Counted from the stretch's first letter, positions 2,760-62,637 are shown. The stretch is 64,000 bases of DNA from an uncultured delta proteobacterium (GCA_963802945.1 CAWDKY010000028.1:128001-192000), one strand, 5' to 3'. Notes: generated from the letters alone by a model not told the origin. Numbers and translations: made by a program.

Positions 2760-3011
2760 ATGAAACGCGCCCAGATCCAATTAGAAGAAGAAACCTTTGA
2801 GGTTTTGCGCCAACGGGCCTTTAAAGAGAAAAAATCCATTGCCGGGATTATTCGAGAGCTTATTCATAAGGAAATAGCCCATCCGGTCCGGGGAAAAAAA
2901 TTATCCGTAAAAGATTTCCGGTTTGTCGGAGCCGGTAAATCCCGGCAAGGATACCTTTCGCCGGTCTCAGAACGACACGACCAGGCCCTGGAGGAGGCGT
3001 TTCGAGAATGA
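2760..3011 (+). CDS. vapB: Ribbon-helix-helix (CopG-like) antitoxin
   Basis: MKRAQIQL...LRQRA...KSIAGIIRELI; overlaps the PIN toxin start by ATGA. Confidence 0.8.
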   Translation: MKRAQIQLEEETFEVLRQRAFKEKKSIAGIIRELIHKEIAHPVRGKKLSVKDFRFVGAGKSRQGYLSPVSERHDQALEEAFRE

Positions 3012-3397: not shown

Positions 3398-3681
3398 CGG
3401 GAAAAATATACAAAATCTAATAGGGTTGAATATAGATACAGGCATTGCCAAGGAAAAACCCGGATAACGGTGCTGTAATGGTTAGATTACTGTAAAGAAT
3501 ATGATTGAGAAAGATCTCGACGCCGTACACAAGTGGCTCATTGAGCTTCTGGAGATTTTGTCTCGGATGGATGGTTAAGAAAAAAGGGGTTGGAACTTTA
3601 CAGAACGTTTAAATGATTGACAAGGGAAAGCATAAAGGAATCCATAAAAAATAGCCTGCAGGTGAAAAAGGGAGGCGTGGA

Positions 3682-4731: not shown

Positions 4732-4780
4732 ACTTGCGACAATCTTGCGACATAACTTACGACAAGCACGCGACTCGACT
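4732..4780 (+). repeat. Phased ~11 bp direct repeats with a CGAC core
   Basis: ACTTGCGACA, ATCTTGCGACA, TAACTTACGACA, AGCACGCGACT, CGACT directly after the fic stop. Confidence 0.7.
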
Positions 4781-4859
4781 CATGATATCAACATCATTCA
4801 GTACATTCGACCCGTTGAATCCTTATTTCTTTAACTAATCATACCGAACAGTAACTTCC

Positions 4860-7051
4860 ATGATCGCCAAAGGCTGGCTTTTAGATTTATATGTCCAGGG
4901 GGACTTCCTAATCCTCTGGTTTCGGCTTAATTCGGGCGAACTCCTTCGCCTGACTGACTCTTTCAGTTTTCTTTTTTATGCTCAGGGCCCAAAGTTTGCT
5001 TTGCGGATCCTGGAAAAAAAATTGGCCCCTTATATTCGTCATACGGCCTGGACCCGGCGGATCGAGTTCTGGAGCGGTAAGACGATTTCAGTATTGGAAA
5101 TATCGATTCGATCTTTGGAAAAAATTCCTGAGGTCCTGCGCCTTCTGGCCGCCGGGTCGGAAGGCCTGACTTTTTATAACTGCGATCTGGGGATTCCCCA
5201 GTATTATGCCTGGCAGAAAGGCCTTTTCCCTTTATGTTCCTGTGAAATAGAGTGGGAAAGGAATGCCTTGAAACGGGTTACGGTCTTGGATTCTCCCTGG
5301 GGTCTGGATGCCTCGTTTCCTGATCTGAGGGTTATGGAAGTGGAATTGACGGCCCATTCGCAGATTCCTTTAAACAAGGGGAATTCCCTTCGGGTTACTT
5401 TTGATAATACTTCTTTTGATCTGGAGGCCTCAGGGGTAACTGAACTCCTGAAAGAACTGAATCACCTGGTAACTGAATATGACCCGGATCTTTTCCTGTC
5501 ACGCCATGGGGATGCGCAAATTTTTCCCTTCCTCTGGCAGGCTTCCCAAAAGGAAAAAAAGCTTTGCTTCTGGATCGGGACCCCTATCCCCCCAGTCGGA
5601 TGCGAGTAGGGCAGGGGCGCTCTTATTTTTCGTACGAACAGGTCCTCTATCAAAGCACCGCCTTTCTCCTTTACGGTCGACTGCATATCGATCAGAAAAA
5701 CTCCTTTTTCTATCGGGAATCCGGTTTGGAAGGGATTCTTTTTCTATCCCGGTTGACCAAGCTGCCGGTTCAGACCGTGGCACGGGCCACACCGGGCACG
5801 GCCATCACTTCGATGCAATTGGATCAAGCCGTTCAAAAGGGCATTCTCATCCCCTGGAAAAAGGGACGCCCTGAAACCTTTAAGACCGCCTGGGATCTCC
5901 TGGTGTCGGACAAAGGAGGGCTGGTCTTGCAGCCCCCTATCGGGCTTTGGGAACAGGTGGCCGAAATCGATTTTGTTTCTATGTATCCCAATATCATGGT
6001 CCAGCACAACATCTCTCCTGAAACCATGCTTTGCCGCTGCTGTCCTGAGGCCGTCGTTCCGGAAACAGGCTATAACATCTGTCAAAAACGGAAAGGTCTG
6101 GTGCCTGAAACCCTGGAACCGATCCTGGCCCTGAGAGCTGAGCTCAAAGCCCGGGCCCATGCCGGTCACCCTAAAAAGCTCCTTTATCAATCAATGCAAC
6201 AGGCCCTTAAATGGCTACTGGTGACCTGTTTCGGGTATATGGGATATAAAAATGCCCGCTTTGGCTGTATCGAGGCCCATGAGGCCATTACCGCTTTTGG
6301 CCGGGACAAACTCCTTTCAGCCAAGGAAGCGGCCGAAGAGAATGGGTTTCAGGTCCTTCACGGCCTCACGGATTCACTTTGGATCCGCGGACCGGAAATG
6401 ACCCCAGGAAAAATAGAGGCCCTTTTAAAGGAAATCACCAATCGAACCGGGGTGCCGATCAGTCTGGAAGGGATTTATCAGTGGATCGTTTTTCTTCCCT
6501 CAAAGGTTCGAGCTGATCGACCGGTAGCCAATCGATACTTCGGGCTTTTTACCAACGGAAACGTGAAAATACGAGGGATCGACTGTTGCCGCCATGATAC
6601 CCCGTTATTTATAAAAAAAGCGCAGGAAGACCTTCTTCTAACCCTGGCGCAAGCGAATAACCGCTCTGGTTTGGAAAGACGGATTCCAGAGGTCTTGGAA
6701 CGATTTAAAGAGTACGTGTCCTACTTAAAACAAGGCCAGGTCGATCCTCGTGAGCTGGTCATTAACCGTCATGTTGGGAAATCTTGGGAAGAATACCGGG
6801 TAAATACACCAACGCCCCTCGTTCTTCAACAACTCGAATCGGCCGGAATAACTCTCTATCCCGGTCAACGTGTAGGTTACCTTTTAGCAGAAGGATCGGC
6901 TCCTTATTCGTCTGATCAAAAATTAATTCCAGCCCCTTTTTTAAACGGTAAAGAGCGTTATGACCCCCGAGAATACATTGACTTGCTTTTTAAAGCGGTA
7001 CAAGAACTCACTATTGTTTTTAATTATAATATTAATAATATTTATGTTTAA
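4860..7051 (+). CDS. B-family DNA polymerase of the PolB2 group, split by a frameshift at the A-run near 5554-5560
   Basis: Motif A DFVSMYP, motif B ALKWLLVTCFGYMG, motif C variant HGLTDS, NRYFG, KIRGI. ORF 4860-5609 is the degenerate N-terminal/exonuclease part. Confidence 0.88.
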
Positions 7052-39496: not shown

Positions 39497-39573
39497 GTCG
39501 TTCCGGCGAAAGCCGGGAACCAGGTTAATATAAACATCAAGATTCCTGGATGCCGGATCAAGTCCGGCATGAC
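39497..39573. repeat. REP-like bipartite palindromic element
   Basis: GTCGTTCCGGCGAAAGCCGGGAACCAG ... CTGGATGCCGGATCAAGTCCGGCATGAC. Confidence 0.75.
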
Positions 39574-44362: not shown

Positions 44363-44503
44363 TTTTGCAAAAGTCCAGTGACGTCATTCCGGCGAACGCC
44401 GGAATCCAGTCCAGCCATTCGAGGGATGGTTCCCGACTTTCGTCGGGACGATGTCTGGACACCGGCTTTCGCCGGTGTGACGAAATTTTAGAGAGTTGCA
44501 AAA
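44363..44503. repeat. REP-like bipartite palindromic element, same family as 39497
   Basis: GTCATTCCGGCGAACGCCGGAATCCAG ... CTGGACACCGGCTTTCGCCGGTGTGAC, flanked by TTTTGCAA/TTGCAAAA. Confidence 0.75.
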
Positions 44504-47632: not shown

Positions 47633-50600
47633 CTATTGAATCGTGTCCAATCTGACCGATACCAATTTAGATATCCCCGGTTGCTCCATGGTCACCCCAT
47701 AAAGGGTGTCGGCCATTTCCATAATTCGCCGGTTATGGGTAATCAGGATGATCTGTGAATCCCGGACGATACTTTGCACTAAATTTTTAAATCTTTCAAT
47801 ATTGGCCTCATCTAAAAAGGCGTCAATTTCGTCCAATAGACAGAAAGGGCTGGGTTTAACCAAATAGGTCGAAAATAAAAGGGCCAGGGCGGTAAGGGCC
47901 TTTTCCCCGCCGGAAAGGAGCGACATGCTGGTCACCCGTTTTCCCGGAGGATGCACCATAATATCCACCCCGGATTCCAGGGGGTCATCTTCGTCGGTAA
48001 GAGACAGCTTGGCAGTACCTCCTCCGAACAACACCGGGAATACTTCGTCCATCTTTTCCTGAATAACTTTAAAAGTGGATAAGAAGAGTTCCTTGGAGGT
48101 CAAATTTATCTTTTGGATGGCCCTCTTCAAGGCATCCATGGATTTGAGCAGGTCTTCTTCTTGCGTGTGATAAAAATCATATCTTTCTTTGAAGGCATTA
48201 TATTCTTCCAGAGCAGTCAGATTCACCTCTCCTATTTGTTCCAACTTTTCCTTAAACTCTCGGCGTTTTATGGTTAAAGCTTCCAGGTCTTCATCACCCT
48301 TTAAATAATGGGAAACCGCCTCCTCCGGAGTCAAGCCGGATTGTTCCAGTGTCCTTTCTTTTAAGTGATCGATTTTCATCTGCGTCTGGGCCAATTCCAT
48401 TCGAAGATCGTTTTCCTGTTGCTCGGCCTCATTCAGAAAACCCCTGGTTTCTTTTAACAACGTTTCCCGATCTTCTTTTTGTTTAATCATCTTATCCCAG
48501 GTTTGATTGGCGGTTTGGATCTGGGCTTCCAGATTATCGACTTTGACGAGTAAATTCTTAGCCGCCTTCTCACCCAAGGCTACTTTTTCAATTAAACCGG
48601 CTTGGATCTGGTTTCCTGTCAGGATTTTTTCCCGAAGTCTTTTTCGCCTGGTTTGCCTTTCAAACAGGGATTCTTTCAATCGTTCCCATTCCTTTCCAAT
48701 ATGTTCTCCTTTTTCTTTCAAAGCCGACAACTGGGTATAGGTCAAGGTCAAGGATTGTCTTTCCTGTTCCAGCTTGCCTTCCAGGATGTGGATCTCTCCG
48801 TCCTTGTCCTGAATGTCTTTTCGCAAACCTTCTATTTCCCGGTTTAAAGTTTCATCTTGCCTGGAAAGGGCTTGTTCCTCCAAGGCCTGATCTTCCTCTT
48901 GGGTCCGATATTCTTCCTCTTCCAGGATGAGCAACTGCAGGCGGCGCTGCATTGGTTTGGTTTCTTCCTGATGACCGATGATGCGCTTCTCCAGTTCGAG
49001 GATCTGCTCTTCTTCCTCCCGTTTCCCGTCCTCCAAGGCCTTGATTTGTTTGATTTGCTCACTGAGGTCTGTTTCTATAGTCCGGATCATCTCTTGTTTC
49101 AGGTTGATCTTTTCCTGCCATTCCTTAACGTTGATCTCTAATCTATGAATAAGGTTCTTTTGAAAAAGCAGGCCGCTCTCTGGTTTTCTGGAACTACCGC
49201 CGGAAATGATCCCTTTGGAATCGATTAGGTCGCCTTCCAAGGTAACTATGCATACCCGGCTGGAATTATTTTTCCAGACCTCTAATCCTTGAGTTAAATC
49301 CGGGACCAGGACAAAAGAGCCCAATAAAACCTCCAGCCAGGGCCGTAATTCTTCTTGGACAGAGATTTTGGATAACAAGGGGATTAATCCTCTTTCTTCC
49401 CAATACCTGGAAGTTATCCCATCTGAAGGCAAATGGATATTCAAAGGTAGAAAGGAGGCCTTGCCTTGTTCCCGGTTTTTCAAAAAGCCGATTCCTTTAA
49501 CGGCCCAAACAGGGTCTTGTATCATCAGGGCCTGCAAGGCCTCTCCCAAGGCAGCTTCCACCGCTGTCTCACAGCCGGGTTCAGTTTCCAGACCTTCCAC
49601 CAACACCTGCCGGAACATCGGGGACGGCGATGAATCTTTGGCCCAATCAGCCTGAAGCAAGGCCCGGACCCCGTTTTGATAACTTTGAAAATTATCCCGG
49701 ATCTCCTGGAGATTCCTGATTTGAGCTTGGTCCTGTTTACTGGCCTGTTCCAAATCCCTTAATTCGTCTTCCAGTTTTTTTTGGGTTTTTCCGGCGTCGA
49801 TCTTTTGCTGCTGGGCCTGAGCAATTTTTTCTATGGCTTGTCGTAAGGATTCCCTTTTTGCTACCAGCTTGATCTCTGCTTCCTGAATAGAGATATTCAA
49901 AAAATCCAGTCGGGCCAATAATTGGGCCTTTTCTTCACCCTGGCGGATAATTCGCCGTTGTCGGTCCTCCTGTAATTTAACCAAACCGGCCCGCATATTC
50001 CTCACTTTGGTCAGTTCCGTCAACTTGGTAACCAGAAAATCTTTGGTCTGCTCAATTTGTTCCTGACTTTTGGTTAATTTTTTTTTGGATTCCTCCAGCG
50101 ATTGTTCCCTTTTCAGCACCCCTTCTTCTTCCCGGGCCAGCGTCTGGGTGAAAGAACTTACCTCTTTTGCCAGCGTCTTTTCCGTGGTTTCATTTTCTAT
50201 TATCCACTGTTCTGTTTCTTGGACCTCCCTTTCAATTTCAACAGCTTCAGTTTCAATATTTTTCAATTCGTTATGATACTGTTGGATCTGGGCCTCTTGT
50301 TTCTCCAGATCGGCTTTCTGCCGATAAAATTGCTCCTGCTTTTCCTTCAACTGCTTTTCCAGTCCTAAGAGCTCAGTCTGCAATTGTTCCAGGGAGGTCT
50401 CATGGGACTGACATTCGTCCCTAAATTCATCGGTCTGCCCCTGCTGACGTCCAAATTCCTCTTCCTTCTGCACTTTTCCTTCCAGCAACGATTGATATTC
50501 CTTGGCTAAAAGGACCAACTCAACCGCTCTGGATTGTTTGCGGATCTCTTTATACCGTTCGGCCTTCTTGGCCTGGCGGTAAAGGGAATTCATCTGCCTT

Positions 50601-51205
50601 CTGATTTCGGCGATGACATCTCCGACCCGTAAAAGATTCTGTTGGGTCAAGTCCAATTTCCGCAGGGTCTCATTCTTTTTGCTCTTATATTTGGCAATGC
50701 CGGCCGCTTCTTCGATCCAGTAACGACGATCCTCAGGCTTGGAATCGATAATGGCCCCGATCCGTCCCTGTTCAACCACTGAATAGGCCTTGCTTCCAAC
50801 CCCGGTATCCATGAATAAGTGGGTTATATCTTTAAGCCGGCATGGTTTATTATTAATGGTGTATTCGCTTTCTCCGTCCCGAAACAACCGGCGGGTGATG
50901 ACCACTTCTTTGAAATCGGCATACTCCTGCGGAATGGAACCGTTGTCATTGTCCAGCACCAGGGAAACCTCGGCCATGCCCACGGAGGATTTTCCATTGG
51001 ATCCGGCAAAGATCACATCATCCATTCCCTTCCCGCGAAGCTGCTTGGGACTTTGCTCGCCCATGACCCATTTGACGGCATCCACAATGTTGCTCTTTCC
51101 GCATCCATTGGGACCCACGACTCCGCTTATTCCTTTCGGAAAAGAGACTATTGTCTTTTCTGGAAAGGATTTAAACCCATTAAGTTCTAATCTTTTAAGT
51201 TTCAC
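47633..51205 (-). CDS. smc: Chromosome segregation protein SMC
   Basis: GPNGCGKS, long coiled coils, hinge, LSGGE, LDEID. Confidence 0.97.
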   Translation of the reverse strand: MKLKRLELNGFKSFPEKTIVSFPKGISGVVGPNGCGKSNIVDAVKWVMGEQSPKQLRGKGMDDVIFAGSNGKSSVGMAEVSLVLDNDNGSIPQEYADFKEVVITRRLFRDGESEYTINNKPCRLKDITHLFMDTGVGSKAYSVVEQGRIGAIIDSKPEDRRYWIEEAAGIAKYKSKKNETLRKLDLTQQNLLRVGDVIAEIRRQMNSLYRQAKKAERYKEIRKQSRAVELVLLAKEYQSLLEGKVQKEEEFGRQQGQTDEFRDECQSHETSLEQLQTELLGLEKQLKEKQEQFYRQKADLEKQEAQIQQYHNELKNIETEAVEIEREVQETEQWIIENETTEKTLAKEVSSFTQTLAREEEGVLKREQSLEESKKKLTKSQEQIEQTKDFLVTKLTELTKVRNMRAGLVKLQEDRQRRIIRQGEEKAQLLARLDFLNISIQEAEIKLVAKRESLRQAIEKIAQAQQQKIDAGKTQKKLEDELRDLEQASKQDQAQIRNLQEIRDNFQSYQNGVRALLQADWAKDSSPSPMFRQVLVEGLETEPGCETAVEAALGEALQALMIQDPVWAVKGIGFLKNREQGKASFLPLNIHLPSDGITSRYWEERGLIPLLSKISVQEELRPWLEVLLGSFVLVPDLTQGLEVWKNNSSRVCIVTLEGDLIDSKGIISGGSSRKPESGLLFQKNLIHRLEINVKEWQEKINLKQEMIRTIETDLSEQIKQIKALEDGKREEEEQILELEKRIIGHQEETKPMQRRLQLLILEEEEYRTQEEDQALEEQALSRQDETLNREIEGLRKDIQDKDGEIHILEGKLEQERQSLTLTYTQLSALKEKGEHIGKEWERLKESLFERQTRRKRLREKILTGNQIQAGLIEKVALGEKAAKNLLVKVDNLEAQIQTANQTWDKMIKQKEDRETLLKETRGFLNEAEQQENDLRMELAQTQMKIDHLKERTLEQSGLTPEEAVSHYLKGDEDLEALTIKRREFKEKLEQIGEVNLTALEEYNAFKERYDFYHTQEEDLLKSMDALKRAIQKINLTSKELFLSTFKVIQEKMDEVFPVLFGGGTAKLSLTDEDDPLESGVDIMVHPPGKRVTSMSLLSGGEKALTALALLFSTYLVKPSPFCLLDEIDAFLDEANIERFKNLVQSIVRDSQIILITHNRRIMEMADTLYGVTMEQPGISKLVSVRLDTIQ

Positions 51206-51918: not shown

Positions 51919-52419
51919 ATGTTTGATTTTCCTGAAGATACTTATGTCAGTCATGCCTCTCAAGGAAGGCTGCGTTTAAGAATACCTTCGAAAAAAAGGG
52001 ATGCCGCCTTTTTTGCCCAACTTCAAGCGGTCCTTTCCTCTATTCCAGGCCTTGATCAAATCAAAGTAAACCCCTTGAGCGGCAGTCTCCTCATCCTCCA
52101 TAGCGAACTTCCCGAGGAAATGGCCTCGTTTGTTAAAACCTTGGCCGGTCTCTCCCCAAAAAGTAATTCCACGGGTAAACCAAACAGCATTTATCAGAGG
52201 TTTACAGGGACATTTCGTCAAGTAAATACCCAAATACAAGGATTTACTAAGGGTGAATTGGATATCCCGACGTTAAGTTTTATTGCCCTTTTAGTCGTGG
52301 GAATCTACCAGATCAGTCGGAAAAATTTCACTGCCCCGGCCTGGTACACGGCTTTTTGGTATGCCTTAAATATTTTTTTACAATCTAAGGAACGATCATG
52401 GTCAAGAAACAGGACTTAA
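51919..52419 (+). CDS. HMA_2-like domain plus C-terminal membrane segment
   Basis: SHASQGRLRLRI...VNPLSGSLLILH; C-terminal GIYQI...PAWYTAFWYA. Confidence 0.72.
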   Translation: MFDFPEDTYVSHASQGRLRLRIPSKKRDAAFFAQLQAVLSSIPGLDQIKVNPLSGSLLILHSELPEEMASFVKTLAGLSPKSNSTGKPNSIYQRFTGTFRQVNTQIQGFTKGELDIPTLSFIALLVVGIYQISRKNFTAPAWYTAFWYALNIFLQSKERSWSRNRT

Positions 52420-52469
52420 ATAAAAAGTTACCTCTACCCGCTAAGCAACCAGCAAAAAGGAGAACGAAT

Positions 52470-53126
52470 ATGCCCAACAAACAAGAACCCAAAAGCCCTG
52501 CCCAAGGCCCGGGCATCGGCAAGGTTGGAACGAGCGTCAAAGATGGAGTGGTCAGCAGCCTTAAGGGAATCAATGAGATCGAAGCAGAAATAGTGACTTT
52601 GGTTAGAAACACCGTTTCCACTACCTTGCGGACCACCGGTTCTTTGGCCGGCGAAAGTTTAAACGTCGCCAAAGAAGTGATTAAGGGGGCCATCCAGGGC
52701 ACCGAAGAAGTGGGCACAGGTCTTATCCTGAGCACAAAAAGCGTTGCCAAGGGAATGATCATGGGCATCAGTGATGTAGGTGGAGATGTGGTCGACATGG
52801 CCAATCAAACCGTCAAAGGGGCCGTCAAAGGCGCTTCCGAAATTGGAGCCGATGTGGGCCTGGTAGCCAGAAGGACGGTAGACGGCGTCATTGAAGCCAC
52901 CAAAGAGATCGGGGGAAATGTGGAAGAGGTCGCTAAGGTGGCTGTCGGCGGGGCCATAGAAGCAGCCGGGACCATTGGGACTATGGCCGTCCGCTCGGTA
53001 AAGGATATGTTGGTCGGGGTGGCCGAAGGGGTTAAAGAAGTGGCCTCCAATTTGGTTCTCAAAACCAAATCGGGCCAAGCTCCGGAAATTAACTCCCGGC
53101 CCAAGGGTGGAAAAGGGAAAGCCTAA
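52470..53126 (+). CDS. Hypothetical protein with tandem 22-residue amphipathic repeats
   Basis: SD AAGGAG before ATG at 52470; at least six gap-free 22-aa units. Confidence 0.75.
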   Translation: MPNKQEPKSPAQGPGIGKVGTSVKDGVVSSLKGINEIEAEIVTLVRNTVSTTLRTTGSLAGESLNVAKEVIKGAIQGTEEVGTGLILSTKSVAKGMIMGISDVGGDVVDMANQTVKGAVKGASEIGADVGLVARRTVDGVIEATKEIGGNVEEVAKVAVGGAIEAAGTIGTMAVRSVKDMLVGVAEGVKEVASNLVLKTKSGQAPEINSRPKGGKGKA

Positions 53127-53424
53127 CATTTGATCCGGTCGATTCATGTCGCGGTAGAAGGCAGTGTCCGTTTTCGGGTTTTGCCTTACCTTAATTGTTG
53201 TCTCACTTATGCGGTGTTCAATAATAATCGTGCCCCTGTTTTTTCTTGCTGGTTTAATAGCCATGGCACTGAAGGAAAGAAAAGAAACAAAACTGGACGA
53301 GGCAAAGAAAGCCCCCCTGTTACCGGTGTAACGAAGGAAAGCACGATTCCAAAGCAGAAGTAGCTTCATTTAGAAGTGGCATCAGTCTGAAAATGTCAAA
53401 CAGCGGCGAACGGCAACTGAGGAG

Positions 53425-53994
53425 CTAACCGTTGGGCTGAGAAATCGGTGCAGGCTGGTGGCTGGGATGCAGCTTTACGAAGGAATCAAAAGCCAGCCAG
53501 AGGAAGACCCAACCTGGGACTTGTTCGAATCTAAGACCGCTTCGTAGTATAGTCCACACCCCCACCCCAACAAAGGCCAAGGGAAGGGCTATTTTGAGGT
53601 TGATATTGACTCCCGTCATCTGGGATAAACGCTTGTTCAAGTCCTCTACAGCTCCGACGAAAGTCAATGGAGCTTCGCTCTTACCATTCGTCGAAAGTGA
53701 TGCATCGATAGATGGTGCCTCGGACAGATTTCCAAAAATTACATCCATATCTTCAAATACCTGACGGATCTCTGACACGTTGTGCTGTTGTGGATTATAG
53801 TTGACGGTGACGCTCCCGGTAGCAGCGTTTACATTCACCTTATCAATGGCGTCATGCTTCCCCAAATGTTCATTAATACGGTTCAACACAGATGGATGCC
53901 TGCTCTCTGGGCTGAGTTTGATCCGCAACCGGCCCGGAACATGGCTCGCCACTCGAGCCTGGTGAACTTGATGCGGTTTCTGAGGATTCACCAT
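53425..53994 (-). CDS. HMA_2-like domain plus C-terminal membrane segment
   Basis: SHVPGRLRIKL...VNAATGSVTVNY; LPLAFVGVGVW...PGWVFLWLAF. Confidence 0.72.
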   Translation of the reverse strand: MVNPQKPHQVHQARVASHVPGRLRIKLSPESRHPSVLNRINEHLGKHDAIDKVNVNAATGSVTVNYNPQQHNVSEIRQVFEDMDVIFGNLSEAPSIDASLSTNGKSEAPLTFVGAVEDLNKRLSQMTGVNINLKIALPLAFVGVGVWTILRSGLRFEQVPGWVFLWLAFDSFVKLHPSHQPAPISQPNG

Positions 53995-54135
53995 TGTCTT
54001 CCTCCAAGCAAATCAAGCGAGTTAGGTTTTAAATCTACCCTGGATTCTCCTTCATGTGGTTTCAATTGCATTTTCTTTATACCATTTATCATCGATGATT
54101 TCAAACGGTAATCCTTGTTTCCCAACGACTTGGTT

Positions 54136-54165
54136 GACCAACAAGTTATTCTAAAGGTTCTGTCT
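54136..54165 (-). other. attI-like site, copy B
   Basis: CCAACAAGTTATTCTA at 54138-54153 is identical to 58915-58930 at the head of the cassette array. Confidence 0.5.
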
Positions 54166-54222
54166 GACTCTACACCCTAAATACTTTATTAAGGTCTCTA
54201 TAAAAAAAACTTACATTGTCTA

Positions 54223-54450
54223 TTAGAAAAAATTTTTCGTTTTTATCATGGCTATATTCGGAATTGGTTTTAATATTAAGAGGATCGTAGGTAAAGGGAA
54301 TGCTGATGGATTGGATGGATCTTTTGAAACATGGATCTGGGCCATAAATCTCCTTAAGAACCTGGAGAGAGTTTTACCAATACTGATATTATGACAAGGT
54401 TAGCATAACCGTGTAATTTGTCAATAAAATTCTCAGAGAAGAAATCAATT
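54223..54450 (-). repeat. Promoter plus small ORF module, copy B
   Basis: About 170 bp similar to 60321-60495; TTGACA-16-TAACCT, SD AAGGAG, ORF MAQIHVSKDPSNPS at 54345. Confidence 0.8.
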
Positions 54451-54879
54451 TAGTTAGGGGATGAAGGAAAAGATTATAACGTGTCTATTGGGGATTGGGT
54501 CGCACAAAAAATTGCTTAATAATTTTTTTTAAAAGGTCAGTCTGATCTTCCCCCAGTATAACGGACAATTGATTAGGGATTAAAAAATTACACAGCTCAT
54601 AAAATTAAGTATGCTTTCTCCGGAATTTATGAAAACTTGAAAAGGAATGGTCAGGGAATTGGCAGCCGTACTGAATGGAACAACGAATGGGGATGGATCC
54701 GTATTCCAGAAGAATCCCCTTCAGACCTTGAAAAATACACCCCCGTGACTGCTTCGAAAATTTCTGGCAACAGGCAAGTCCCGATCGCTACTTCCCTCAG
54801 GTTAAAAAGAACGGAGTAGCTGCCGTTCCCAAGCAAAAGGAAATCCGACCGGAACAAATTATTCCAATGGAAGAAGATT

Positions 54880-55383
54880 TTAAAAAATTTTAAAGGAACT
54901 AAAACAAGAATAAACCCTCAACATTTCCTTCAATTGCTCAACACGCGGCTCAGTGGGAGCCGGGTTTTTCGGCGATCCACGGCAGCCGATGGTTAGCGTT
55001 CTATTTGCTACGATCCGTGTATGGGCGCGTTGGTGCTCCGGTGAATTGCTCTTGTTATCTCTTAACTTGTTCAGATTGTCTTTTGCTTCTGGATTGATGT
55101 CTAATTCAAACTGTAGTTCTTTGCAGGGAAAATCAGCACATTCAATGCAGGAATTGTACTCCCTCTCGACGCAACATTTACGCATTTTACATAAATTGCG
55201 GCAATTAAATGAAAGCCTTTTACCTGCTCTACAACCATCGCAGATTACATACTCAGGTTTTACATCAGTACGATACAACTTCGACAAATTTTCAGCGACT
55301 CTTACTAATTCTTCATCATTTCCTGATTGGGTTGCATGGTAGCTATCACATTTCGAACAGTCTATTCCGCAATAAGCAATCAT
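54880..55383 (-). CDS. DUF3795-like Cys-rich cassette protein; ORF reads through the damaged attC
   Basis: IAYCGIDCSKC, CDGC, C..RKCC, CIECADFPC. Confidence 0.8.
   Translation of the reverse strand: MIAYCGIDCSKCDSYHATQSGNDEELVRVAENLSKLYRTDVKPEYVICDGCRAGKRLSFNCRNLCKMRKCCVEREYNSCIECADFPCKELQFELDINPEAKDNLNKLRDNKSNSPEHQRAHTRIVANRTLTIGCRGSPKNPAPTEPRVEQLKEMLRVYSCFSSFKIF
54936..54998 (-). mobile_element. Integron attC site 4
   Basis: CGCTAAC ... imperfect palindrome ... GTTGAGC, 63 bp, similar to attC1. Confidence 0.85.
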
Positions 55384-55402
55384 TTAGTTCTCCATATTAT
55401 TA

Positions 55403-55459
55403 AGATAACACTAAAAGTCAGCGGTGGCTTCAGCCATCCGCTGGAATTTGTAGTTAGAA
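55403..55459 (-). mobile_element. Integron attC site 3
   Basis: TTCTAAC...CAGCGGATGGCTGAAGCCACCGCTG...GTTATCT, 57 bp. Confidence 0.85.
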
Positions 55460-55591
55460 GATCACAGTTAGTTTTAATGTACTTTTAAGGGGTCAAATAT
55501 TTTGCGTTGACAATTCTTCCTTCATTTACTTTTTAATATTCGTCTATAGAAAAGATTTGACATCTTTCTGCCCCTCTCTTTTCCCTGACCT

Positions 55592-57094
55592 TTATCCATT
55601 CTGTGCTATCAATGTATCTAAGTAATTCTTTAGGCCATCAAGAATACCAAGCTGTAAAGCTAAAAAGTCTTCCTTTCCAAGCAGTTGTATACTTAACTTT
55701 CCAGAATATTTCATAACTGTTTTAGTGAGCTGTTTCTCTTTAGCCCTAATTTTAGACGCCTTTCCATGATCCAAATCATGGCGTAGATCTATACGCAACG
55801 CAACTATATCTCTAACCATGTCTGGCAAAGTAGATCCCAATCTTGTACCAGACCCACTCCCCTCATAGATGATTTTATAAAGCGCATCAATAAATTGCCC
55901 ATATAATTCCTGGTTCTTTAAGGTACTTTCAATAAGACGTAACCCTTTTGCAGTTTCATTTGTCGCCTTGAATAGGTCCTCACCATTTTTACTACGATAT
56001 ACCTCATTACACTTGTAAACTAAGTCTCCTACGCGGGTGGCCAAGGATTGAATTTGCTTTTCGATAGATTTTTCCATCGATCCAGTTTTCAAAAAGCATT
56101 GTGCATAAGAGGGATCAAAGAGGATTAGTTTCTTGACCAGGATTTCATTTCTCTTTTCAATTGATTCACGATCTGCAGTACCATAGTTAATGGCCTGCTG
56201 GTATGCTATCAAGTCACCGTCAGTTGCCAGTTTTCCCTTCTCAACTTCAGATCTCAAGTTATGAGAGAATTTTTCAAAAAATTCCCCCGACCTTTTTTCC
56301 ATTTTCCTTAATTGTCCTGAATCCTGGATTTGAGCTGAAAGATAGCAAAAGGAGACAATTGACGCTCGATTTCTTAAGGTGCTCGTTTTAGCTGGGAACA
56401 TCTTATTCATTGAATCAAACAATGATTTCAATTTCTTACCGAGAGTAGATCCCGATGAAAAGTTGATATTCTCCCTGAACATCTTCTCTAGTTCTGCAAA
56501 CCTCATGCGTGGCTGTATGCCCTTCAAAATTAAAAATGCAACCTTTGCACAAGTATCAAAGTGGGCGTACCTTGTGTCTTGGGCCGCAACTTTTTCTTTA
56601 AAAAAAGTATGCTTGGTGAGTTCACGAAGAAAATCCCGCAAGCCACTCTCAATTGCATTAAGTTTTTCAGGAGTATTGAGAGCTGTTCCCAGTTGCAGTC
56701 GTTGAAAAAGCTCCTTGACTTCATCATCGGTTGCGTCTTCGATTTCTTCAACCTGTAAAACAAAGTCGTCGAATTTATCTGATATAGCGGGCTTTAGATC
56801 CTCATACAGAGGGCCACCATAAGATTTTTGTGATTCCTGAGACAAAGGAATTTTATTGTCGAAAAATTCCCAGATTGTGATTAACCGTTGTTGACCATCA
56901 ACACATTCAAAAGTTTCGTCTCCAACCTTACGAAAGTAAAGGACAGGCACGTGCCATTCTTTAAGGATTGTATCTAAAAATTTTTGTTTCTTTTTTGGAG
57001 GCCAAACCGCACCACGCTGCCAGTCAGGTATCTCAATTCTATCTCGTCGCTTATAAAGCTTATCCAATGCTCGAGGACGAAGCTCCATTCTCAT
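55592..57094 (-). CDS. DUF262 (GmrS/ParB-like) protein with possible C-terminal HEPN-like domain
   Basis: PDWQRGAVW and VDGQQRL motifs; C-terminal RIDLRH fits RX4H. Confidence 0.8.
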   Translation of the reverse strand: MRMELRPRALDKLYKRRDRIEIPDWQRGAVWPPKKKQKFLDTILKEWHVPVLYFRKVGDETFECVDGQQRLITIWEFFDNKIPLSQESQKSYGGPLYEDLKPAISDKFDDFVLQVEEIEDATDDEVKELFQRLQLGTALNTPEKLNAIESGLRDFLRELTKHTFFKEKVAAQDTRYAHFDTCAKVAFLILKGIQPRMRFAELEKMFRENINFSSGSTLGKKLKSLFDSMNKMFPAKTSTLRNRASIVSFCYLSAQIQDSGQLRKMEKRSGEFFEKFSHNLRSEVEKGKLATDGDLIAYQQAINYGTADRESIEKRNEILVKKLILFDPSYAQCFLKTGSMEKSIEKQIQSLATRVGDLVYKCNEVYRSKNGEDLFKATNETAKGLRLIESTLKNQELYGQFIDALYKIIYEGSGSGTRLGSTLPDMVRDIVALRIDLRHDLDHGKASKIRAKEKQLTKTVMKYSGKLSIQLLGKEDFLALQLGILDGLKNYLDTLIAQNG

Positions 57095-57107
57095 ATTAAT
57101 ATTCTCC

Positions 57108-57164
57108 TTCTAAAGACAAAATCAGCGGCGGCTGTAAGATGTCTACTGGATTGCTTTGTTGGGC
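57108..57164 (-). mobile_element. Integron attC site 2 with mutated crossover (TTT for GTT)
   Basis: GCCCAAC ... TTTAGAA, 57 bp, similar to attC3. Confidence 0.75.
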
Positions 57165-57220
57165 TATTCTTGTCTTCCCTTTGTCCGCCGCCAATGGCTA
57201 ACCCCACCGCCTTCGTATTT

Positions 57221-57670
57221 TTAGGAGGTGGAAAGCGATTTCCTTTTGAAAACAGCAATGATCAATGTTGCAAGCATTGATGATATAACACCCAAGATGA
57301 AAGAAATTCCTCTATCAAGCCATAACTTTCTTGCCGAAACCTCCGATTGCAATCTAAAAATTGCTTCAATAGTTTTCCGATCAGCCTCGATAACAGGCTT
57401 AATCTTCTTTTCTTCTTCTTTTAATTCTTTTATGGCTTTCTCCGACTCGACTAAATTTCTCTTCTGGTCGTTGACAAATGTTTGTAGTCTCGCCAAATTG
57501 TCACTCACGTTATCTAATGTTTTTAATTGGGAGGAATATTCAAATTCGTGTTTAGATTTCTTAAGTACATATTTATCATGAATGAGAACGGGTACGCTAG
57601 CAAGCAAACCGATCACAAGTGCAATGATCACGTGTCCTGGAAAATATTTTAGAAAACCTCTATCAACCAT
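57221..57670 (-). CDS. Cassette protein, TM-coiled coil-TM
   Basis: Two hydrophobic segments flanking a heptad-rich region; SD GAGGT. Confidence 0.7.
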   Translation of the reverse strand: MVDRGFLKYFPGHVIIALVIGLLASVPVLIHDKYVLKKSKHEFEYSSQLKTLDNVSDNLARLQTFVNDQKRNLVESEKAIKELKEEEKKIKPVIEADRKTIEAIFRLQSEVSARKLWLDRGISFILGVISSMLATLIIAVFKRKSLSTS

Positions 57671-57690
57671 TTGACGACCTCACTATCTGT

Positions 57691-57754
57691 GCCCAACATC
57701 ACGTGTCACCGGGAGCCGGATTTATCGGCGATCCGGTGCAACCGCTTGTTGGTA
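57691..57754 (-). mobile_element. Integron attC site 1
   Basis: TACCAAC...CACCGGATCGCCGATAAATCCGGCTCCCGGTG...GTTGGGC, 64 bp. Confidence 0.88.
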
Positions 57755-58464
57755 TGTTTATACTTTTTAAGTTCCGAAAAGTTCGCTATCCTTCCTTGTG
57801 TCTTCTGGGTGCCATAAACGATGTTAATGCCATACCTATTTGAAAGTTCTTGTCTAATTACTTCGGCATGACCTGACGGCACCCCTGTAAAGACTATCAT
57901 AGGCGAAAAATGAATACCAGTTCTGTCGATCATTTTCTTTCTTGATATGAAAGCAGGCAGAAACTCCAGTACAAGGCCAGTGAATCCAAACAAGGCCTCG
58001 GGAAATGGGACTAAATGTTTAACCTCAACAAATGAGAAAAGTTGTTGGTTGCCCACATAGCTGTGTCGCCTTCCGTTCTTAAGTTTGACGGTAACCGCCC
58101 CATTCACAGCACATACAGCAACATCCGGCGTATAATATAGATGTTCGTTATGTGCAGATTGAATTTTGGTATTGTGAAAGATACATATGGGTTTCTTGGA
58201 AGCCAGGTCTGTAGCTTCAAAATAAGAAAAATTATCTATCAAGCCTGTCGAGACTATCTTATAACGAAAGGACTTCCTAGGGCCTAGGTTTTTGGCGGTC
58301 AAATTGAATCCTCGGTCTTGGTAATAGGCTACAACTGAGTTGTAGGTGGCTACTTCTACCAGGCTGGAAATTCGTTTGGCATTTGTTCTGCGAAAGTAAC
58401 CGTTTTTCCTTATGAATTCTTTCGCTTGATCTATTAGCGTTTTCCGGTCAATCCACGGTTGCAT
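57706..58464 (-). CDS. Cassette protein, putative PD-(D/E)XK nuclease
   Basis: E..TYN helix, YTPDVAV, FVEVKH; stop lies inside attC1. Confidence 0.6.
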   Translation of the reverse strand: MQPWIDRKTLIDQAKEFIRKNGYFRRTNAKRISSLVEVATYNSVVAYYQDRGFNLTAKNLGPRKSFRYKIVSTGLIDNFSYFEATDLASKKPICIFHNTKIQSAHNEHLYYTPDVAVCAVNGAVTVKLKNGRRHSYVGNQQLFSFVEVKHLVPFPEALFGFTGLVLEFLPAFISRKKMIDRTGIHFSPMIVFTGVPSGHAEVIRQELSNRYGINIVYGTQKTQGRIANFSELKKYKHTNKRLHRIADKSGSR

Positions 58465-58906
58465 GTCCTACCTTCTCCTGAACAGCCTGGACATTCCTTA
58501 TAAAGGACTTTAAAGTATCAAAGGAAAGCACCTCGACAGGAATCTTGTGAAAGGCCAAAAGCTCGTGAAACGCCATTACACAACCGGTGAACTTTCTAAT
58601 TGTCTGTGATGTCAGCTTGTCGCGGCCCATTCTGACATGCGTTGCTTTTGCAGTGTGGGCTAAAGACAAAAGAGACCTTCCACTTTCTAGCGGGGAAATG
58701 ATTTCTGTATAGAATAGCGATATTGCCAAAATGTCCACAATTTGCTGTTGAGTCGAAACATCCAGTAGCTTAAAAGCCGGGTCCTTCGGGAGGCGTGATT
58801 TTAGCTCATAGTAAGATGAGCGCACCCTGCGACCGAGTACAGTGCCAACTCCATCTGTCAACGCGAAAATCATGCCCATGTCTAACTGAGTGTTTGTATC
58901 ATTCAT
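58448..58906 (-). CDS. Hypothetical protein, first gene of the first cassette
   Basis: ATG lies 6 nt after GTTGGGG; overlaps the next gene by 17 nt. Confidence 0.65.
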   Translation of the reverse strand: MNDTNTQLDMGMIFALTDGVGTVLGRRVRSSYYELKSRLPKDPAFKLLDVSTQQQIVDILAISLFYTEIISPLESGRSLLSLAHTAKATHVRMGRDKLTSQTIRKFTGCVMAFHELLAFHKIPVEVLSFDTLKSFIRNVQAVQEKVGHATVD

Positions 58907-58912
58907 AATTTA

Positions 58913-58945
58913 CCCCAACAAGTTATTCTATAATTTTCTGTATAT
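58913..58945 (-). other. attI-like site, copy A (head of array)
   Basis: Minus strand ATAGAATAACTT-GTTGGGG precedes the first cassette with no attC palindrome upstream. Confidence 0.6.
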
Positions 58946-59003
58946 CTTTCCATGCTAAGGGGGGCCTTCAAGGGTATAATTAATAGCCATTTATCTTGAA
59001 TTA

Positions 59004-60138
59004 TAGTGAACGTCTTAAATAAGTGGACATAAAGATTTTATCTTTTGAGGTTTCCATCGTTGCGACCTTTTAAAGACAGAGACCTCCAGGGTTTCAAGAG
59101 TCTCAAAAAAGGCATTCGTTGTTTCCTCATAGCGCATGGTTCGCCAAAGAGTTTCTTGATAATTCAGCTCCGGATGGTAGGGCGGAAGATAGTGAAGATG
59201 CACTCGACGGTGTTGACTCCGAAAGTGCTCCACCATCTCTCCCCTGTGCCATGGGGCTCGATCTATCCAAAGATCGATACTCTTATCTTTGAAACGTATC
59301 ATGATGCTTTTGAGAAGCCGCATAAAGCCCTCGGTATTGCCCTTCCTCCATTTCATCATGCCATGCAGCCCATCAACGGGAGCGACCCATCCAAAGAGAT
59401 TAAGCCGCTTCTGATGTTGGCTCCGGGTGGAGACGTACGGTTGCGTTCCTTTCTTTACCCAGACACGACCCAGCCTCGGATGAAGACTAAACCCGCTTTC
59501 GTCCTCAAACAGAATGATTCTTCTTCCTTCGCTCTTTTCGGCCTGGCGGAGTTTTTTTTAATTCCCTCTGAAATGCCTCTACCCCTTCCTGGGAAGCCTG
59601 AACAAACCGGTACATCGGCTGCCTCAGGGAATACCCCAACTGACGTATCCACCGTTGGGCATGGCGGACATGGATGGTTATGCGATGAAAACGCTTCAAA
59701 TATTCCGTCAAGACCACCCCATCCCACCGGACCCGGGCAATGCCATAGTCTTTCGGAGACTTGGACAAGACCACGTCCAGTTCCCTCTTCAAGCGATCAT
59801 CCAAGTGGGAAGGCCGGCCAGGGCGAAATCGATCGCGGACAGCCCCAATTCCCTCCTCGTTGCTCTTATGAATCCATTTCACCACCGTCCACCGGGTCAA
59901 CCCGAACAGTTCGGCAACAGCCGTGGATTTCCACCCGGCCAAGAGCAGAAGATAACCGGCGATCCGCATGCCGATCCAAGCTCCCGGAATTTCATCGGCC
60001 ATTCGTAACAAGGTCTCTCGCGTCATCTTTGGGTGATCGAGGCTTAGAGCTTTCATGGCTTTCCTCCCAATGTGATTTTATTGGGAGTCATTATAGCATG
60101 GAATGCACATAATGTCTACTTATTTATGGCGTTAACTA
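59004..60138 (-). mobile_element. IS630 family insertion sequence
   Basis: TIRs TAGTGAACGTCTTAAATAAGTGGACAT / TAGTTAACGCCATAAATAAGTAGACAT; TA duplication at 59002-59003 and 60139-60140. Confidence 0.92.
59015..60056 (-). CDS. IS630 transposase in two frames joined at an A8 run near 59552-59559
   Basis: HTH ORF 59505-60056; second frame has FEDES, IDRAPWH and PELNYQE (DDE triad). Confidence 0.9.
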
Positions 60139-60218
60139 TAATTGCTCGAAGACATCCCCCCAAACCATATTCCTTTTAAATCATTATCAATAATTTCCTG
60201 AAAGTCTCCTTCAACAGC

Positions 60219-60495
60219 TTATTCAATCCTTCTGTATATCATGTCATTTTTAAGGTTATATAGAAATGGGAGAATCATTCCTGTGTTACAATTACTATAA
60301 CCGGAACGAGGTTTAACATAAAGAGGATCGTAGGCAAAGGGAATAGGTGATGGATTGGATGGATCTTTTGAGACATGGAACTGAGCCATAAATCTCCTCA
60401 AGAACCTGGAAAGGGGCGTAACAATTTTGATAGTATTTCAAGGATAGCATAACCGCTTAATTTGTCAATAAAGTTCCCTGAAAAGAAACCAACTT
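60219..60495 (-). repeat. Promoter plus small ORF module, copy A (56 aa ORF 60219-60389)
   Basis: TTGACA-16-TATCCT with extended TG, SD GAGGAG, MAQFHVSKDPSNPSPIPFAYDPL. Confidence 0.8.
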
Positions 60496-60555
60496 GATGT
60501 CGTCGAGGATTTAATAAATCAAGCGATGTTGGCTGTTGATTCTGGAGGAAAATGT

Positions 60556-62637
60556 TCAAGACGAAGAACTGAATTTAGAGAACAGGGCAAAACGATTGAA
60601 CAGGGAAGTCAATTGAAAGAGTAAGGCCAAACGGTTATTTTTGATTTTTTCATCCGGGGCCATGACCAGAACTTGATCAAAAAAGGCATCGATGGTCGGA
60701 CGCAACTGGGCCAAATGGAGAAGGTATTCGGCATACCCTTTTTGCCGGAAAAGACTTTCCAACTCGGCTTGTTTCTCTTGGACTTTTTGGAAGAGTTCCT
60801 TTTCCTGAGGTTCTATTAATAATTCAGGTGTTACCTTTCCGGCGTCAGAAGGAGACATCCCTTTTAAGATATTCAAGGCCCGTTTGCAGCCGATGGCCAA
60901 CGATGGAAAATCCGGGTGCTCTTGAAATTCCTGAAGAGCCTGAGTCCGGAGTTTCACTTCACAGAAATCATCCCATTCGGTGGCCAAAACGGCCTCAATG
61001 GTTTCCCTTCCGATTCCTTCACCTTCCAACAAATACTGCAGACGCAAGGCAAAAAAGTCCCGAAGGTTTTGTTTGATGGTTGCGGCCTTTTCTTGAAACC
61101 GTCCTGAATACGGAATTAAGGCCTGTTCCAAGACCTTCTTTAAAGATAGGGGATAGCCTTTATCCCAAAGGATCAGGATAACGGCCTGGGCCTGGCGGCG
61201 TAAGGCATAAGGGTCAGCCGAGCCGGTGGGGATTTGACCCAGGCCGAAAAAACCGACTAAGGTATCCAGACGATCGGCCAAGCCGACCAAGGCCCCGGTG
61301 ATCGTCCTGGGCAGGGCACTTCCCACCGAAACCGGCAGATAGTGCTCAAAGATTCCTTGAGCTGTTTCTTCCTCCTCTCCGGATCGTAGTGCATATTCCC
61401 GGCCCATAATCCCCTGGAGAGTCGGAAACTCCCCTACCATCAGGGAAGTCAGATCGGCTTTGCACAATAGGGCACATCGTCTGATCATAGATTCTTTTTC
61501 CGGGGCCAGATTCCTGGAAAGATAAGCAGCCAGTTCAATAATCCGCTCAACTTTTTCAAAAGAGGTTCCCAAACGGGAATGAAATACCACGGTCTTCAAG
61601 GCGGCAACTTTTTCGGACAGAGGTTTTTTCAAGTCTTCCTTGAAAAAGAATTGGGCGTCAGAAAGGCGGGCCAGTAGGACCTTTTCGTGCCCTTGGACCA
61701 CATGGCGGGTATCCTTCACCCGGGTATTGTTGACGGCAATGAAACAAGGGAGCAGGTCACCATGCCCGTCGACCATGGGGAAATAGCGCTGATGCTCCTT
61801 CATGGAGGTAATCAGGACTTCGGGAGGTAATTTTAAAAAGTCAGGATCAAATCGACCGCAAACCGGTTCTGGAAATTCAATCAGAAAATTGACTTCCTGA
61901 ACTAATTCGGGATCGGCCAAAACCCGGCCCTTGAATTGGCCGGCCAAGGCCTCAACGGATTTCTGTAGCAGATCTTCCCGTTCTTTAGGGTCCACAATGA
62001 CCTGAGCCTGGCGGAGTTGCGATACATAATCCCCCGCTCCCTTGAGGGATATTGCCTCAGGGGCCATAAAACGATGCCCATAAGTCTGGTGGCCGGAGGA
62101 AATACCTTCCAAAGAAAAAGGGATCACCCGGTCCCCCAAAAGGGCAACGATCCAATGAATAGGGCGGGCAAAACGAAAAGATGAATTTCCCCAACGCATA
62201 AATTTAGGAAAAGGCAAATCTATAATCAATTGAGGCAGAAGTTCAGACAAGACCACAGCCGCTGGAAGTCCTTTGATGATCTTTGTTAGGCCCAGATAAA
62301 CCCCTTTGGGGGTTTCAATGAATTCCAATTCCTCAACATTCACCCCTTTGGCCTTGGCGAAACCAAGGGCGACTTTGGTTGGACGGCCGTCCAATGAAAA
62401 AGCCGCCTGTTTCGGAGGACCCATAATATTTTCCGTCTTATCCGATTGAAAAGGGGGAAGGCCGAAAATCAAAAGAGCCAGCCTTCGAGGCGTGCCGACG
62501 GTCTTTATTTCCCGGTGTTGGAGACGGGATTGTTGGAATCGCTCCTGGGCCAATTCTTTCATGGCCTCCAACGCCCCAGGGATAAAACGGGCCGGAATTT
62601 CTTCGGTCCCGATTTCGAACAATAAATCTTGTTCCAT
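60556..62637 (-). CDS. glyS: Glycine-tRNA ligase beta subunit
   Basis: LLFEIGTEEIP, TPRRL, FARPIHW, EFPTLQGIMG, DPYALRR. Confidence 0.97.
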   Translation of the reverse strand: MEQDLLFEIGTEEIPARFIPGALEAMKELAQERFQQSRLQHREIKTVGTPRRLALLIFGLPPFQSDKTENIMGPPKQAAFSLDGRPTKVALGFAKAKGVNVEELEFIETPKGVYLGLTKIIKGLPAAVVLSELLPQLIIDLPFPKFMRWGNSSFRFARPIHWIVALLGDRVIPFSLEGISSGHQTYGHRFMAPEAISLKGAGDYVSQLRQAQVIVDPKEREDLLQKSVEALAGQFKGRVLADPELVQEVNFLIEFPEPVCGRFDPDFLKLPPEVLITSMKEHQRYFPMVDGHGDLLPCFIAVNNTRVKDTRHVVQGHEKVLLARLSDAQFFFKEDLKKPLSEKVAALKTVVFHSRLGTSFEKVERIIELAAYLSRNLAPEKESMIRRCALLCKADLTSLMVGEFPTLQGIMGREYALRSGEEEETAQGIFEHYLPVSVGSALPRTITGALVGLADRLDTLVGFFGLGQIPTGSADPYALRRQAQAVILILWDKGYPLSLKKVLEQALIPYSGRFQEKAATIKQNLRDFFALRLQYLLEGEGIGRETIEAVLATEWDDFCEVKLRTQALQEFQEHPDFPSLAIGCKRALNILKGMSPSDAGKVTPELLIEPQEKELFQKVQEKQAELESLFRQKGYAEYLLHLAQLRPTIDAFFDQVLVMAPDEKIKNNRLALLFQLTSLFNRFALFSKFSSSS

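Follow-up and report, generated by a model that had tools for sequence, protein, structure and literature searches.

Two copies of a predicted promoter and short open reading frame between glyS and smc

We analyzed a 64,000-nt stretch of DNA from an uncultured delta proteobacterium (GCA_963802945.1, CAWDKY010000028.1:128001-192000), hereafter the window, and studied two related units in it, each composed of a promoter-like sequence, a Shine-Dalgarno (SD) sequence and a short open reading frame (ORF). Coordinates refer to the window unless a contig is named, and both copies and all their parts are read on the minus strand. The units, copy A and copy B, lie in the order glyQ, glyS, copy B, an insertion sequence (IS), three ORFs without a recognized family, a GmrSD_N/NsnA-like gene, a DUF3795 gene, copy A, an HMA_2 gene, three genes on the opposite strand and smc. 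The features are as follows.

54397..54451, minus strand: copy A promoter region, with the left edge of homology, the -35 box at 54419-54424, a 16-nt spacer with TG and the -10 box TAACCT at 54397-54402
54223..54355, minus strand: copy A SD sequence (54350-54355) and short ORF, read below as a recombinase 5' stub (ATG at 54345, stop at 54223; 40 aa, frameshifted)
54138..54222, minus strand: copy A downstream block, closed by the shared motif ..CCTTTAGAATAACTTGTTGG (16-mer at 54138-54153); an unrelated gene lies behind it
53425..53994, minus strand: gene behind copy A, an HMA_2/HMA domain protein of 189 aa
60441..60495, minus strand: copy B promoter region, 60 nt past the glyS stop, with the -35 box at 60463-60468, a 16-nt spacer with TG and the -10 box TATCCT at 60441-60446
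60219..60399, minus strand: copy B SD sequence (60394-60399) and short ORF, read below as a recombinase 5' stub (ATG at 60389, stop at 60219; 56 aa)
60144..60170, minus strand: portion of the copy B downstream block ahead of the IS (GGGGGGATGTCTTCGAGCAATTA), which matches the same block of the copies on contig C29
58999..60143, minus strand: IS630-family element splitting the copy B downstream block, with terminal inverted repeats (TIRs) at 58999-59030 and 60112-60143 and ORFs at 59505-60056 (HTH) and 59015-59359 (DDE_3)
58915..58998, minus strand: portion of the copy B downstream block beyond the IS, closed by the shared motif (16-mer at 58915-58930); the next gene starts 9 nt further on
54880..58906, minus strand: genes behind copy B, encoding proteins of 152, 252 and 149 aa (no family found), a GmrSD_N/NsnA-like protein of 500 aa (55592-57094) and a DUF3795 protein of 167 aa
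60556..62673, minus strand: glyS, conserved left border of the variable interval
47633-51205: smc, right border of the variable interval

The two copies (54243-54451 and 60286-60495) share about 209 nt at 82-83% identity (BLAST E 1.6e-52), in agreement with the original prediction, made from the sequence of this stretch, that a diverged module occurs twice. Both carry TTGACA as the -35 box followed by the 16-nt spacer with TG, an SD sequence (AAGGAG in copy A, GAGGAG in copy B) and an ORF whose codons 1-14 read MAQ(I/F)HVSKDPSNPS. These parts of the description held, and the 14 codons differ by two synonymous changes and one non-synonymous change. The -10 box is TATCCT in copy B and a degenerate TAACCT (3/6) in copy A, which falls below the threshold of our promoter scan. 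Across the region, the scan returned 14 promoter-like sites against 14.6 expected, and thus no excess.

The ORF of copy A is frameshifted. A 1-nt indel had been assigned to copy B; the comparison shows instead a 1-nt deletion in copy A near 54302/54303, since the extra base is present in all three relatives (copy B, L170 and L183). L170, a metagenome relative, is an unframeshifted orthologue of copy A and also carries its downstream motif. As had been noted, an exact 16-mer recurs behind each copy, and similarity between the copies stops at ..AACTTGTTGG. In copy B the distance from the ATG to the 16-mer is 1.46 kb, owing to the insertion of an IS630-family element between them. This element is 1,145 bp long, landed in a TA dinucleotide that is found at both junctions, and has 32-nt TIRs matching at 88%. 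It has the features of the family (PF13358 (DDE_3), HTH_29/32/33, TIRs and the TA target), with the transposase split into two ORFs, and its ends recur in public contigs that start or stop at 59002 and 60140-60144.

Origin of the short open reading frame

To judge from profile alignments, the short ORF is almost certainly the 5' stub of a tyrosine-recombinase gene of the XerA/integron-integrase-like type, because both a stub profile and two in-frame fusion forms align to such recombinases. The fusion forms, L043 from a genome of the genus and L175 from a metagenome, are 89 aa long and join the N-terminal 55 residues of the recombinase to its C-terminal 33 residues. L043 matched P0001 with phmmer at E 3.6e-31, and L043 and L175 matched the hidden Markov model (HMM) of the family at 6.8e-31 and 4.7e-23, respectively. 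A 55-stub profile aligned with a 14-member recombinase alignment at an hhalign probability of 95% (E 2.5e-8), residues 1-33 on residues 1-33. Copy B alone did so at E 6.5e-5 (residues 1-26 on 1-26), and the copy A orthologue L170 at E 1.5e-5. The original prediction had proposed an unknown leader peptide and had named a fragment of a known longer gene as the finding that would speak against it; a fragment of a recombinase gene is what these alignments point to.

The recombinases to which the stubs align, hereafter the parent family, are about 370 aa long and begin M..(Q)ISKDPSGR.IVSFPYDPL..KVKTI.GRRWHP, a pattern that could be glimpsed in the window copies. They contain PF13495 and PF00589, and two members, P0003 and P0004, score 241 bits with the NCBIfam model NF040815 ("site-specific tyrosine recombinase/integron integrase"), above its cut-off of 220. 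Against the integron-integrase model TIGR02249 the family scores 212-243 bits, under the cut-off of 265. The parent aligns contiguously to XerA (4A8E, E 1.8e-42, residues 96-354); its alignment to the integron integrase IntI4/VchIntIA (2A3V) falls into two blocks that leave out about 40 residues of the IntI-specific insertion. In addition, the parent has an extra N-terminal domain of about 90 aa with the motif ..FPYDP..KVK.I.GRRWHP..K.WSFP, which matches HARP weakly (E 0.001).

Scanning one genome per species yielded 601 relatives, of which the 80 best came from Nitrospirota, Desulfobacterota-type bacteria, Aminicenantes, Bacteroidota, Bacillota, Spirochaetota and several archaeal metagenome-assembled genomes (MAGs), often at contig ends. 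We found no description of XerA-like recombinases with this N-terminal domain beside cassette arrays in the literature covered; some of the archaeal loci may be listed in the supplements of PMC9668308.

The window copies hold only about 30 N-terminal codons, which lie upstream of the catalytic domain, and the full-length NF040815 match therefore belongs to the parents and not to the copies. A C-terminal remnant suspected by eye in the window copies was rejected, as the family HMM gives it no support.

Spread and conservation of the stubs

The window's own genome contains at least eight copies of the module. Copies were also present in 10 of 13 other genomes of the genus (up to 10 among the matches listed per genome) and in 0 of 8 genomes of other families. 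An exact search of metagenome contigs with a 37-nt core gave 27 matches in 26 loci, all of them short stubs, with a longest ORF of 133 aa. The original prediction had asked whether further copies always precede attC arrays; the additional copies stand before ordinary single genes.

Among 32 unique copies, the segment from -18 to +30 around the ATG is nearly invariant, third codon positions included, while the amino acids at codons 3, 4 and 11 vary freely; the ORFs range from 15 to 133 aa and have unrelated tails. The conservation is thus one of DNA or RNA and not the product of selection on a peptide, because third codon positions are invariant while codons 3, 4 and 11 vary. A TTGACA-like -35 box precedes the ATG in 20 of the 32 unique copies, as counted with a regular expression for this box alone; in the alignment of the same copies, the 16-nt spacer, the TG and a TATAAT-like -10 box were seen by eye and left uncounted.

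The same data bear on the view that the ORF is a working leader peptide, a sensor or attenuator through which the downstream genes would be regulated as a regulon. The near invariance of the SD sequence, the start codon and the first 10 codons in 32 copies would suit such a role, as would a terminator-like hairpin behind stub B and a pairing, visible by eye, of the SD sequence with codons 6-7. However, a functional peptide would not be expected to keep its third positions while changing amino acids at codons 3, 4 and 11, nor to range from 15 to 133 aa with unrelated tails, and copy A is frameshifted. The modules match no Rfam family and fold no better than shuffled sequences (z +0.8 to -2.2), and the peptide is accounted for as a gene fragment. 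We regard a working leader peptide as highly improbable. The stubs show that fragments of pseudogenes can remain nearly 100% conserved over 50 nt across a genus, which constitutes a trap for the prediction of small ORFs.

Intact relatives as integron-like platforms

In intact relatives, the recombinase gene is followed behind its stop codon by a conserved flank of 110-130 nt, which contains two palindromic sites and ends in (G/A)AAC(G/A)AG|TTA, where similarity stops. L094 and L095, two contigs from a single Spirochaetota MAG, match exactly over 4 kb of upstream sequence, the gene and the site, and then differ by a single-gene segment of 1.43 kb inserted at ..AAAGAG|TT. The far end of this segment consists of GTACAAC, an inverted pair and ..CACCG|TT. 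Both loci also present a cassette array (about 584 nt per cassette, with attC-like sites of about 160 nt) behind an XerA-like recombinase that fails the integron-integrase cut-off.

Cassette ends in the relatives take the form GCCTAAC-ACGGTGTTTG...CAAACACCG-...GTTA, and the first 12 nt past the junction recur downstream as their reverse complement in 5 of 15 loci against 0.1 expected in total. We scored attC-like sites with a scanner that was positive in 6 of 7 control loci. Of 41 loci, 21 had such sites downstream in the same orientation (0.283/kb), compared with 4 of 58 upstream (0.024/kb); the opposite strand gave eight hits. By these sequence features, the intact relatives are laid out as integrons, with the predicted integrase co-directed with its cassettes.

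A comparable arrangement has been described for archaeal integrons, whose attI site directly follows intI (Ghaly et al. 2022, PMC9668308), and 'reverse orientation' integrases of Spirochaetota are mentioned in the same source. The relatives resemble archaeal integrons in the succession of gene, G|TT insertion site and co-oriented cassettes with attC-like ends (R''-L''...L'-R'), and the window units would keep the promoter end of such a platform and, by inference, its site end. They differ from integrons in that the parent recombinase lacks the IntI-specific insertion, scores 223 against 265 for TIGR02249 and has the extra N-terminal domain, and in that the window has neither an integrase nor attC sites. 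The catalytic core of the parent family matches XerA (NF040815; structures 4A8E and 5HXY). Unlike XerA, however, the parent has about 90 extra N-terminal residues and adjoins cassette-like cargo instead of serving as a chromosome dimer resolvase, and the window preserves only about 30 of its codons. Since the parent family fails the integron-integrase test yet is found, in bacteria as well as archaea, beside sites that resemble attI and attC, integron-like systems may be undercounted when surveys demand IntI.

A canonical two-palindrome site ending in CAGAGTTAT was also observed in the window's own genome, at G000:C15:11102-11200, preceded by a TTGACA..TAGATT promoter-like site and without a recombinase ORF.

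The motif behind the stubs

The 16-mer shared by the copies closes a longer motif, CAGAAAAACTTTAGAATAACTTGTT, which spans about 30 nt and has about 19 sites in the genome. Its exact 12-mer occurs 14 times against about 0.5 expected (for a 12-mer in 8.7 Mb), and 33 times with one mismatch. Behind the 19 sites, together with two one-mismatch sites (C24 and C25), a co-oriented ORF follows at 9-204 nt, at 606 nt once and uncertainly at two. A 14-mer of the motif, allowing at most one mismatch, was found 18 times in the window's genome, 16 times in G005, 20 times in G008 and 10 times in G011; the 3-4 occurrences in G001 and G002 equal the control level. Among 48 unique stubs with enough downstream sequence, the motif lay within 600 nt downstream in 13, upstream in 1 and on the opposite strand in none.

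Not all of the sites go with a stub: 6 of the 19 follow one, and the motif is partly independent of the stub because the other 13 sites have other leaders and no stub. These other leader families are about 125-150 nt long, are equipped with a TTGTCA-17-TATAAT promoter of their own, resemble the window modules only in the final ~30 nt (..CAGAAAAACTTTAGAATAACTTGTT) and stand each before a different gene; they were seen in G000 on C41 (21449, 25967), C26 (1470), C53 (153216), C37 (15796, 35327), C30 (216824), C33 (37483), C15 (174027) and C28 (104349). RAYT-like Y1 genes were noticed by eye near three motif sites.

From its position, we infer that the motif is a relic of the attI-like site of the parent, because it lies behind the stub, is the last shared sequence before unrelated genes and ends in AAC...GTT. 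Joining of cassettes at G|TT behind an attI feature is seen in the intact relatives; in the window, the cargo borders do not lie at G|TT and the site shows no sequence homology to that of the relatives. Sequence homology of the motif to the relatives' site was sought in three ways and not found.

The ending of the motif also invites a reading in terms of IS91/ISCR elements, namely that the unit is a solo oriIS end carrying a promoter, with the motif end ..CAGAAAAACTTTAGAATAA as the transposase-distal end and CTTG as the target. IS91 elements prefer the tetranucleotide CTTG as their target, and the motif ends in CTTG. Some IS91 elements of the genus carry a 285-aa recombinase that is 40% identical to the parent family of the stub, and an intact recombinase-plus-IS91 element in G004 starts exactly after the ..TAGAATAACTTGTT of a module. 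In this element (L151, G004:C38:64000-72500, positions 2843-5389 of the locus) the 285-aa recombinase is accompanied by a 390-aa Y2 transposase (NF033538, 468 bits); a second copy, 98% identical, lies at G004:C17. Outward promoters (POUT) are moreover known from the oriIS end of ISCR1 (PMC13393415).

Against this, the stub is the N-terminus of a recombinase, the order is promoter, stub and motif, and no transposase remnant occurs. In tblastn searches, two IS91 transposases matched 0 of 56 stub loci and gave a single weak fragment, on the opposite strand, in 80 loci with a full-length recombinase, while 4 of 4 positive controls were recovered. By coordinate comparison, none of 32 transposase places in 14 genomes of the genus, and none of 8 in five further genomes, lay directly upstream of the motif and co-oriented with it. 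Neither of the two intact IS91 elements inspected has a right end like the module, and the only intact IS91-family gene of the window's genome has nothing in common with the modules. For the stub family, the IS91 reading thus lacks support, and it persists as a rival for the motif alone; as an account of the units we consider it quite unlikely.

Integron features in the window and its genome

The original prediction placed the two copies on either side of an attC array, but the attC-like scanner found none between them. Genome-wide, it gave 85 attC-like hits against about 44 expected by chance. The best match to TIGR02249 in the genome reached 79.6 bits against the cut-off of 265, so no integron integrase was detected, and neither an integrase nor an attC array nor an IS91 transposase accompanies the window copies. 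The genome also holds no recombinase of the parent family. The idea of a new integron platform nevertheless survives in part: the intact relatives have an attI-like site and attC-like sites downstream, while the window units, which had been called integrase-free, are integrase-dead rather than integrase-free by design.

The sole Rfam match to 53000-61000 at E up to 1 was to a microRNA and is attributable to chance. We considered and dropped the possibility that the modules form a structured leader RNA or fold like an attC site, with z-scores of +0.8 to -2.2 for the single-strand DNA folds of eight modules and above -1.7 for the intergenic gaps.

The glyS-smc interval and the genes behind the modules

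Comparison with the syntenic interval of G005, a sister species, showed that the genes between glyS and smc differ. Behind the end of glyS (93% identical), G005 has the same stub, which shares 89% identity with copy B and breaks off after about 15 codons; next come the genes of a type I restriction-modification system (HsdM, ORF6N, HsdS, an unknown ORF and HsdR) and finally smc. The glyS-smc interval is a variable defense island, or hotspot, in which a search for swapped defense systems of this lineage would naturally begin.

Integrative islands can accrete in tandem at hotspots, where pseudogenized integrases also occur. The interval resembles this process in that two co-oriented stubs lie in one variable interval between core genes and the cargo of the sister species differs; it departs from it in lacking an att duplication or an intact integrase and in that the stubs are conserved beyond what is usual for integrase pseudogenes.

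On another reading the modules are themselves mobile, as non-autonomous derivatives of a recombinase element comparable to miniature inverted-repeat transposable elements (MITEs), with both termini kept (a promoter-side left edge and the right edge ..AACTTGTT) and the interior lost; they would be moved in trans and would insert before resident genes as mobile promoters. Deletion variants in which the distance from ATG to motif ranges from 118 to 384 nt with both ends kept would fit, as would the 14-mer counts, according to which copy number varies strongly between species of the genus, and the SPFH-type gene behind the C15 copy, which occurs without the module in five genomes and with it in two. 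However, no clean pair of an empty and a filled site emerged, the module-less SPFH loci differing in their whole upstream context. All 19 motif sites are directed toward a gene, which is unexpected for random insertion, though selection could yield that. Neither TIRs nor duplicated targets were observed, each subfamily has its own left edge, and the genome holds no trans-acting recombinase of the parent type. Movement as a MITE-like element is therefore, in our estimate, unlikely.

Fossil integron-like platforms as the favored reading

We favor, with a probability of roughly 0.6, the reading that the units are decayed front ends of tyrosine-recombinase genes, that is, fossil integron-like platforms that likely act as promoters for the genes behind them. 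Each copy would preserve the sigma-70 promoter, ribosome-binding site, start codon and about 30 codons of a parent gene, the rest of which would have been deleted; the parent would have been an XerA/integron-integrase-like tyrosine recombinase with the extra N-terminal domain of about 90 aa. Behind the stub comes a short block ending in CAGAAAAACTTTAGAATAACTTG|TT (its start is 190 nt downstream in copy A, and it follows the IS630 insertion in copy B) and then an unrelated gene. Such a fossil platform would consist of an integrase promoter, a dead integrase stub and an attI-like relic, and two of them would be stacked in the glyS-smc defense island.

The position of these parts and the relatives in other phyla make it most likely that the window units are dead integron-like platforms. 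They are probably recombinationally inert, because the genome holds no recombinase of the parent family. Most likely they would still provide the genes behind them with a strong promoter that reads outward and with a translated 5' end, and the predicted outward promoter may well drive this cargo. In this respect the units would be comparable to the integron promoters Pc and Pint and to POUT of ISCR1 (PMC13393415), in which the promoter of a mobile platform reads into the gene joined behind it; they would differ in that the predicted promoter is that of a dead integrase gene itself and is followed by a translated stub, with no linked IS91 transposase.

Several results weigh against the favored reading. 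With regard to the recombinase gene, no C-terminal remnant is detectable in the window copies and only 2 of 67 modules have one, and no full-length gene with the 5' end of the stub was found in the window's genome, in 14 genomes of the genus, in 21 genomes of the order or in an exact-pattern scan of metagenomes. With regard to the site, the 13 of 19 motif sites without a stub count against it, and a profile of 13 intact flanks found no window-type block in the genome at E up to 10, its one marginal match (E 0.2, at the expected place) falling in L175, the form that joins the N-terminal 55 and C-terminal 33 residues. The reverse profile gave 7 hits against 9 in a reversed-sequence control. No attC-like site was found in 175-192 kb of contig C28 and no cluster of three or more in the genome, and cassette-like closure behind the 19 motif sites amounted to 0-2 weak reverse-complement hits of the cargo start. 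A terminator-like hairpin is predicted between stub B and its cargo.

The borders of the cargo weigh in the same direction. The copy A unit differs from G005 by a 3.1-kb block, neither edge of which (about 54628 and 51521) coincides with the motif. Behind the C15 copy stands an SPFH-type gene, for which homology to five other genomes begins 12-50 nt past the motif; five genomes carry this gene in different surroundings and with no module, and G004 has a stub there with the motif absent. The motif is therefore not demonstrably a precise junction within the genus.

A bolder version, which we hold tentatively and consider doubtful, is that the stubs are remains, in this genus, of undescribed cross-domain integron-like platforms, with an XerA-type recombinase devoid of the IntI insertion, a HARP-like N-terminal domain, an attI-like site and co-directed attC-type cassettes. 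The dead platforms would then be kept by selection as portable expression units (a promoter plus an invariant 53-nt translation start) for defense and accessory genes, and homologous recombinases borne by IS91 elements might still land there. With the fossil-platform reading, a supposed new micropeptide and an "integrase-free integron" give way to decayed stubs that are probably promoters in a defense-gene hotspot.

Further repeats and genes of the region

Two HMA_2 (PF19991) genes, at 51919-52419 on the plus strand and 53425-53994 on the minus strand, face each other around two overlapping unannotated ORFs (52398-53126, plus strand; 52659-53369, minus strand), and G005 lacks this entire block in its syntenic interval. 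At least 30 copies of a dispersed repeat, about 82 nt long and with a 21-bp stem (single-strand DNA fold z -5.2), occur in the genome, none of them between the window copies; the repeat was located at 505-695 of L191 (G000:C15:418504-418694, behind the C15 cargo gene) and in the window at 39503-39523 and 44389-44475. Finally, a 45-nt repeat (54950-54994 and 57706-57750, 78% identical) makes up the 3' coding ends of two genes, those for the DUF3795 protein and the 252-aa protein, and its copy at 57705-57750 occurs in many unrelated contigs of four public metagenome runs, with unlike sequence on both sides.

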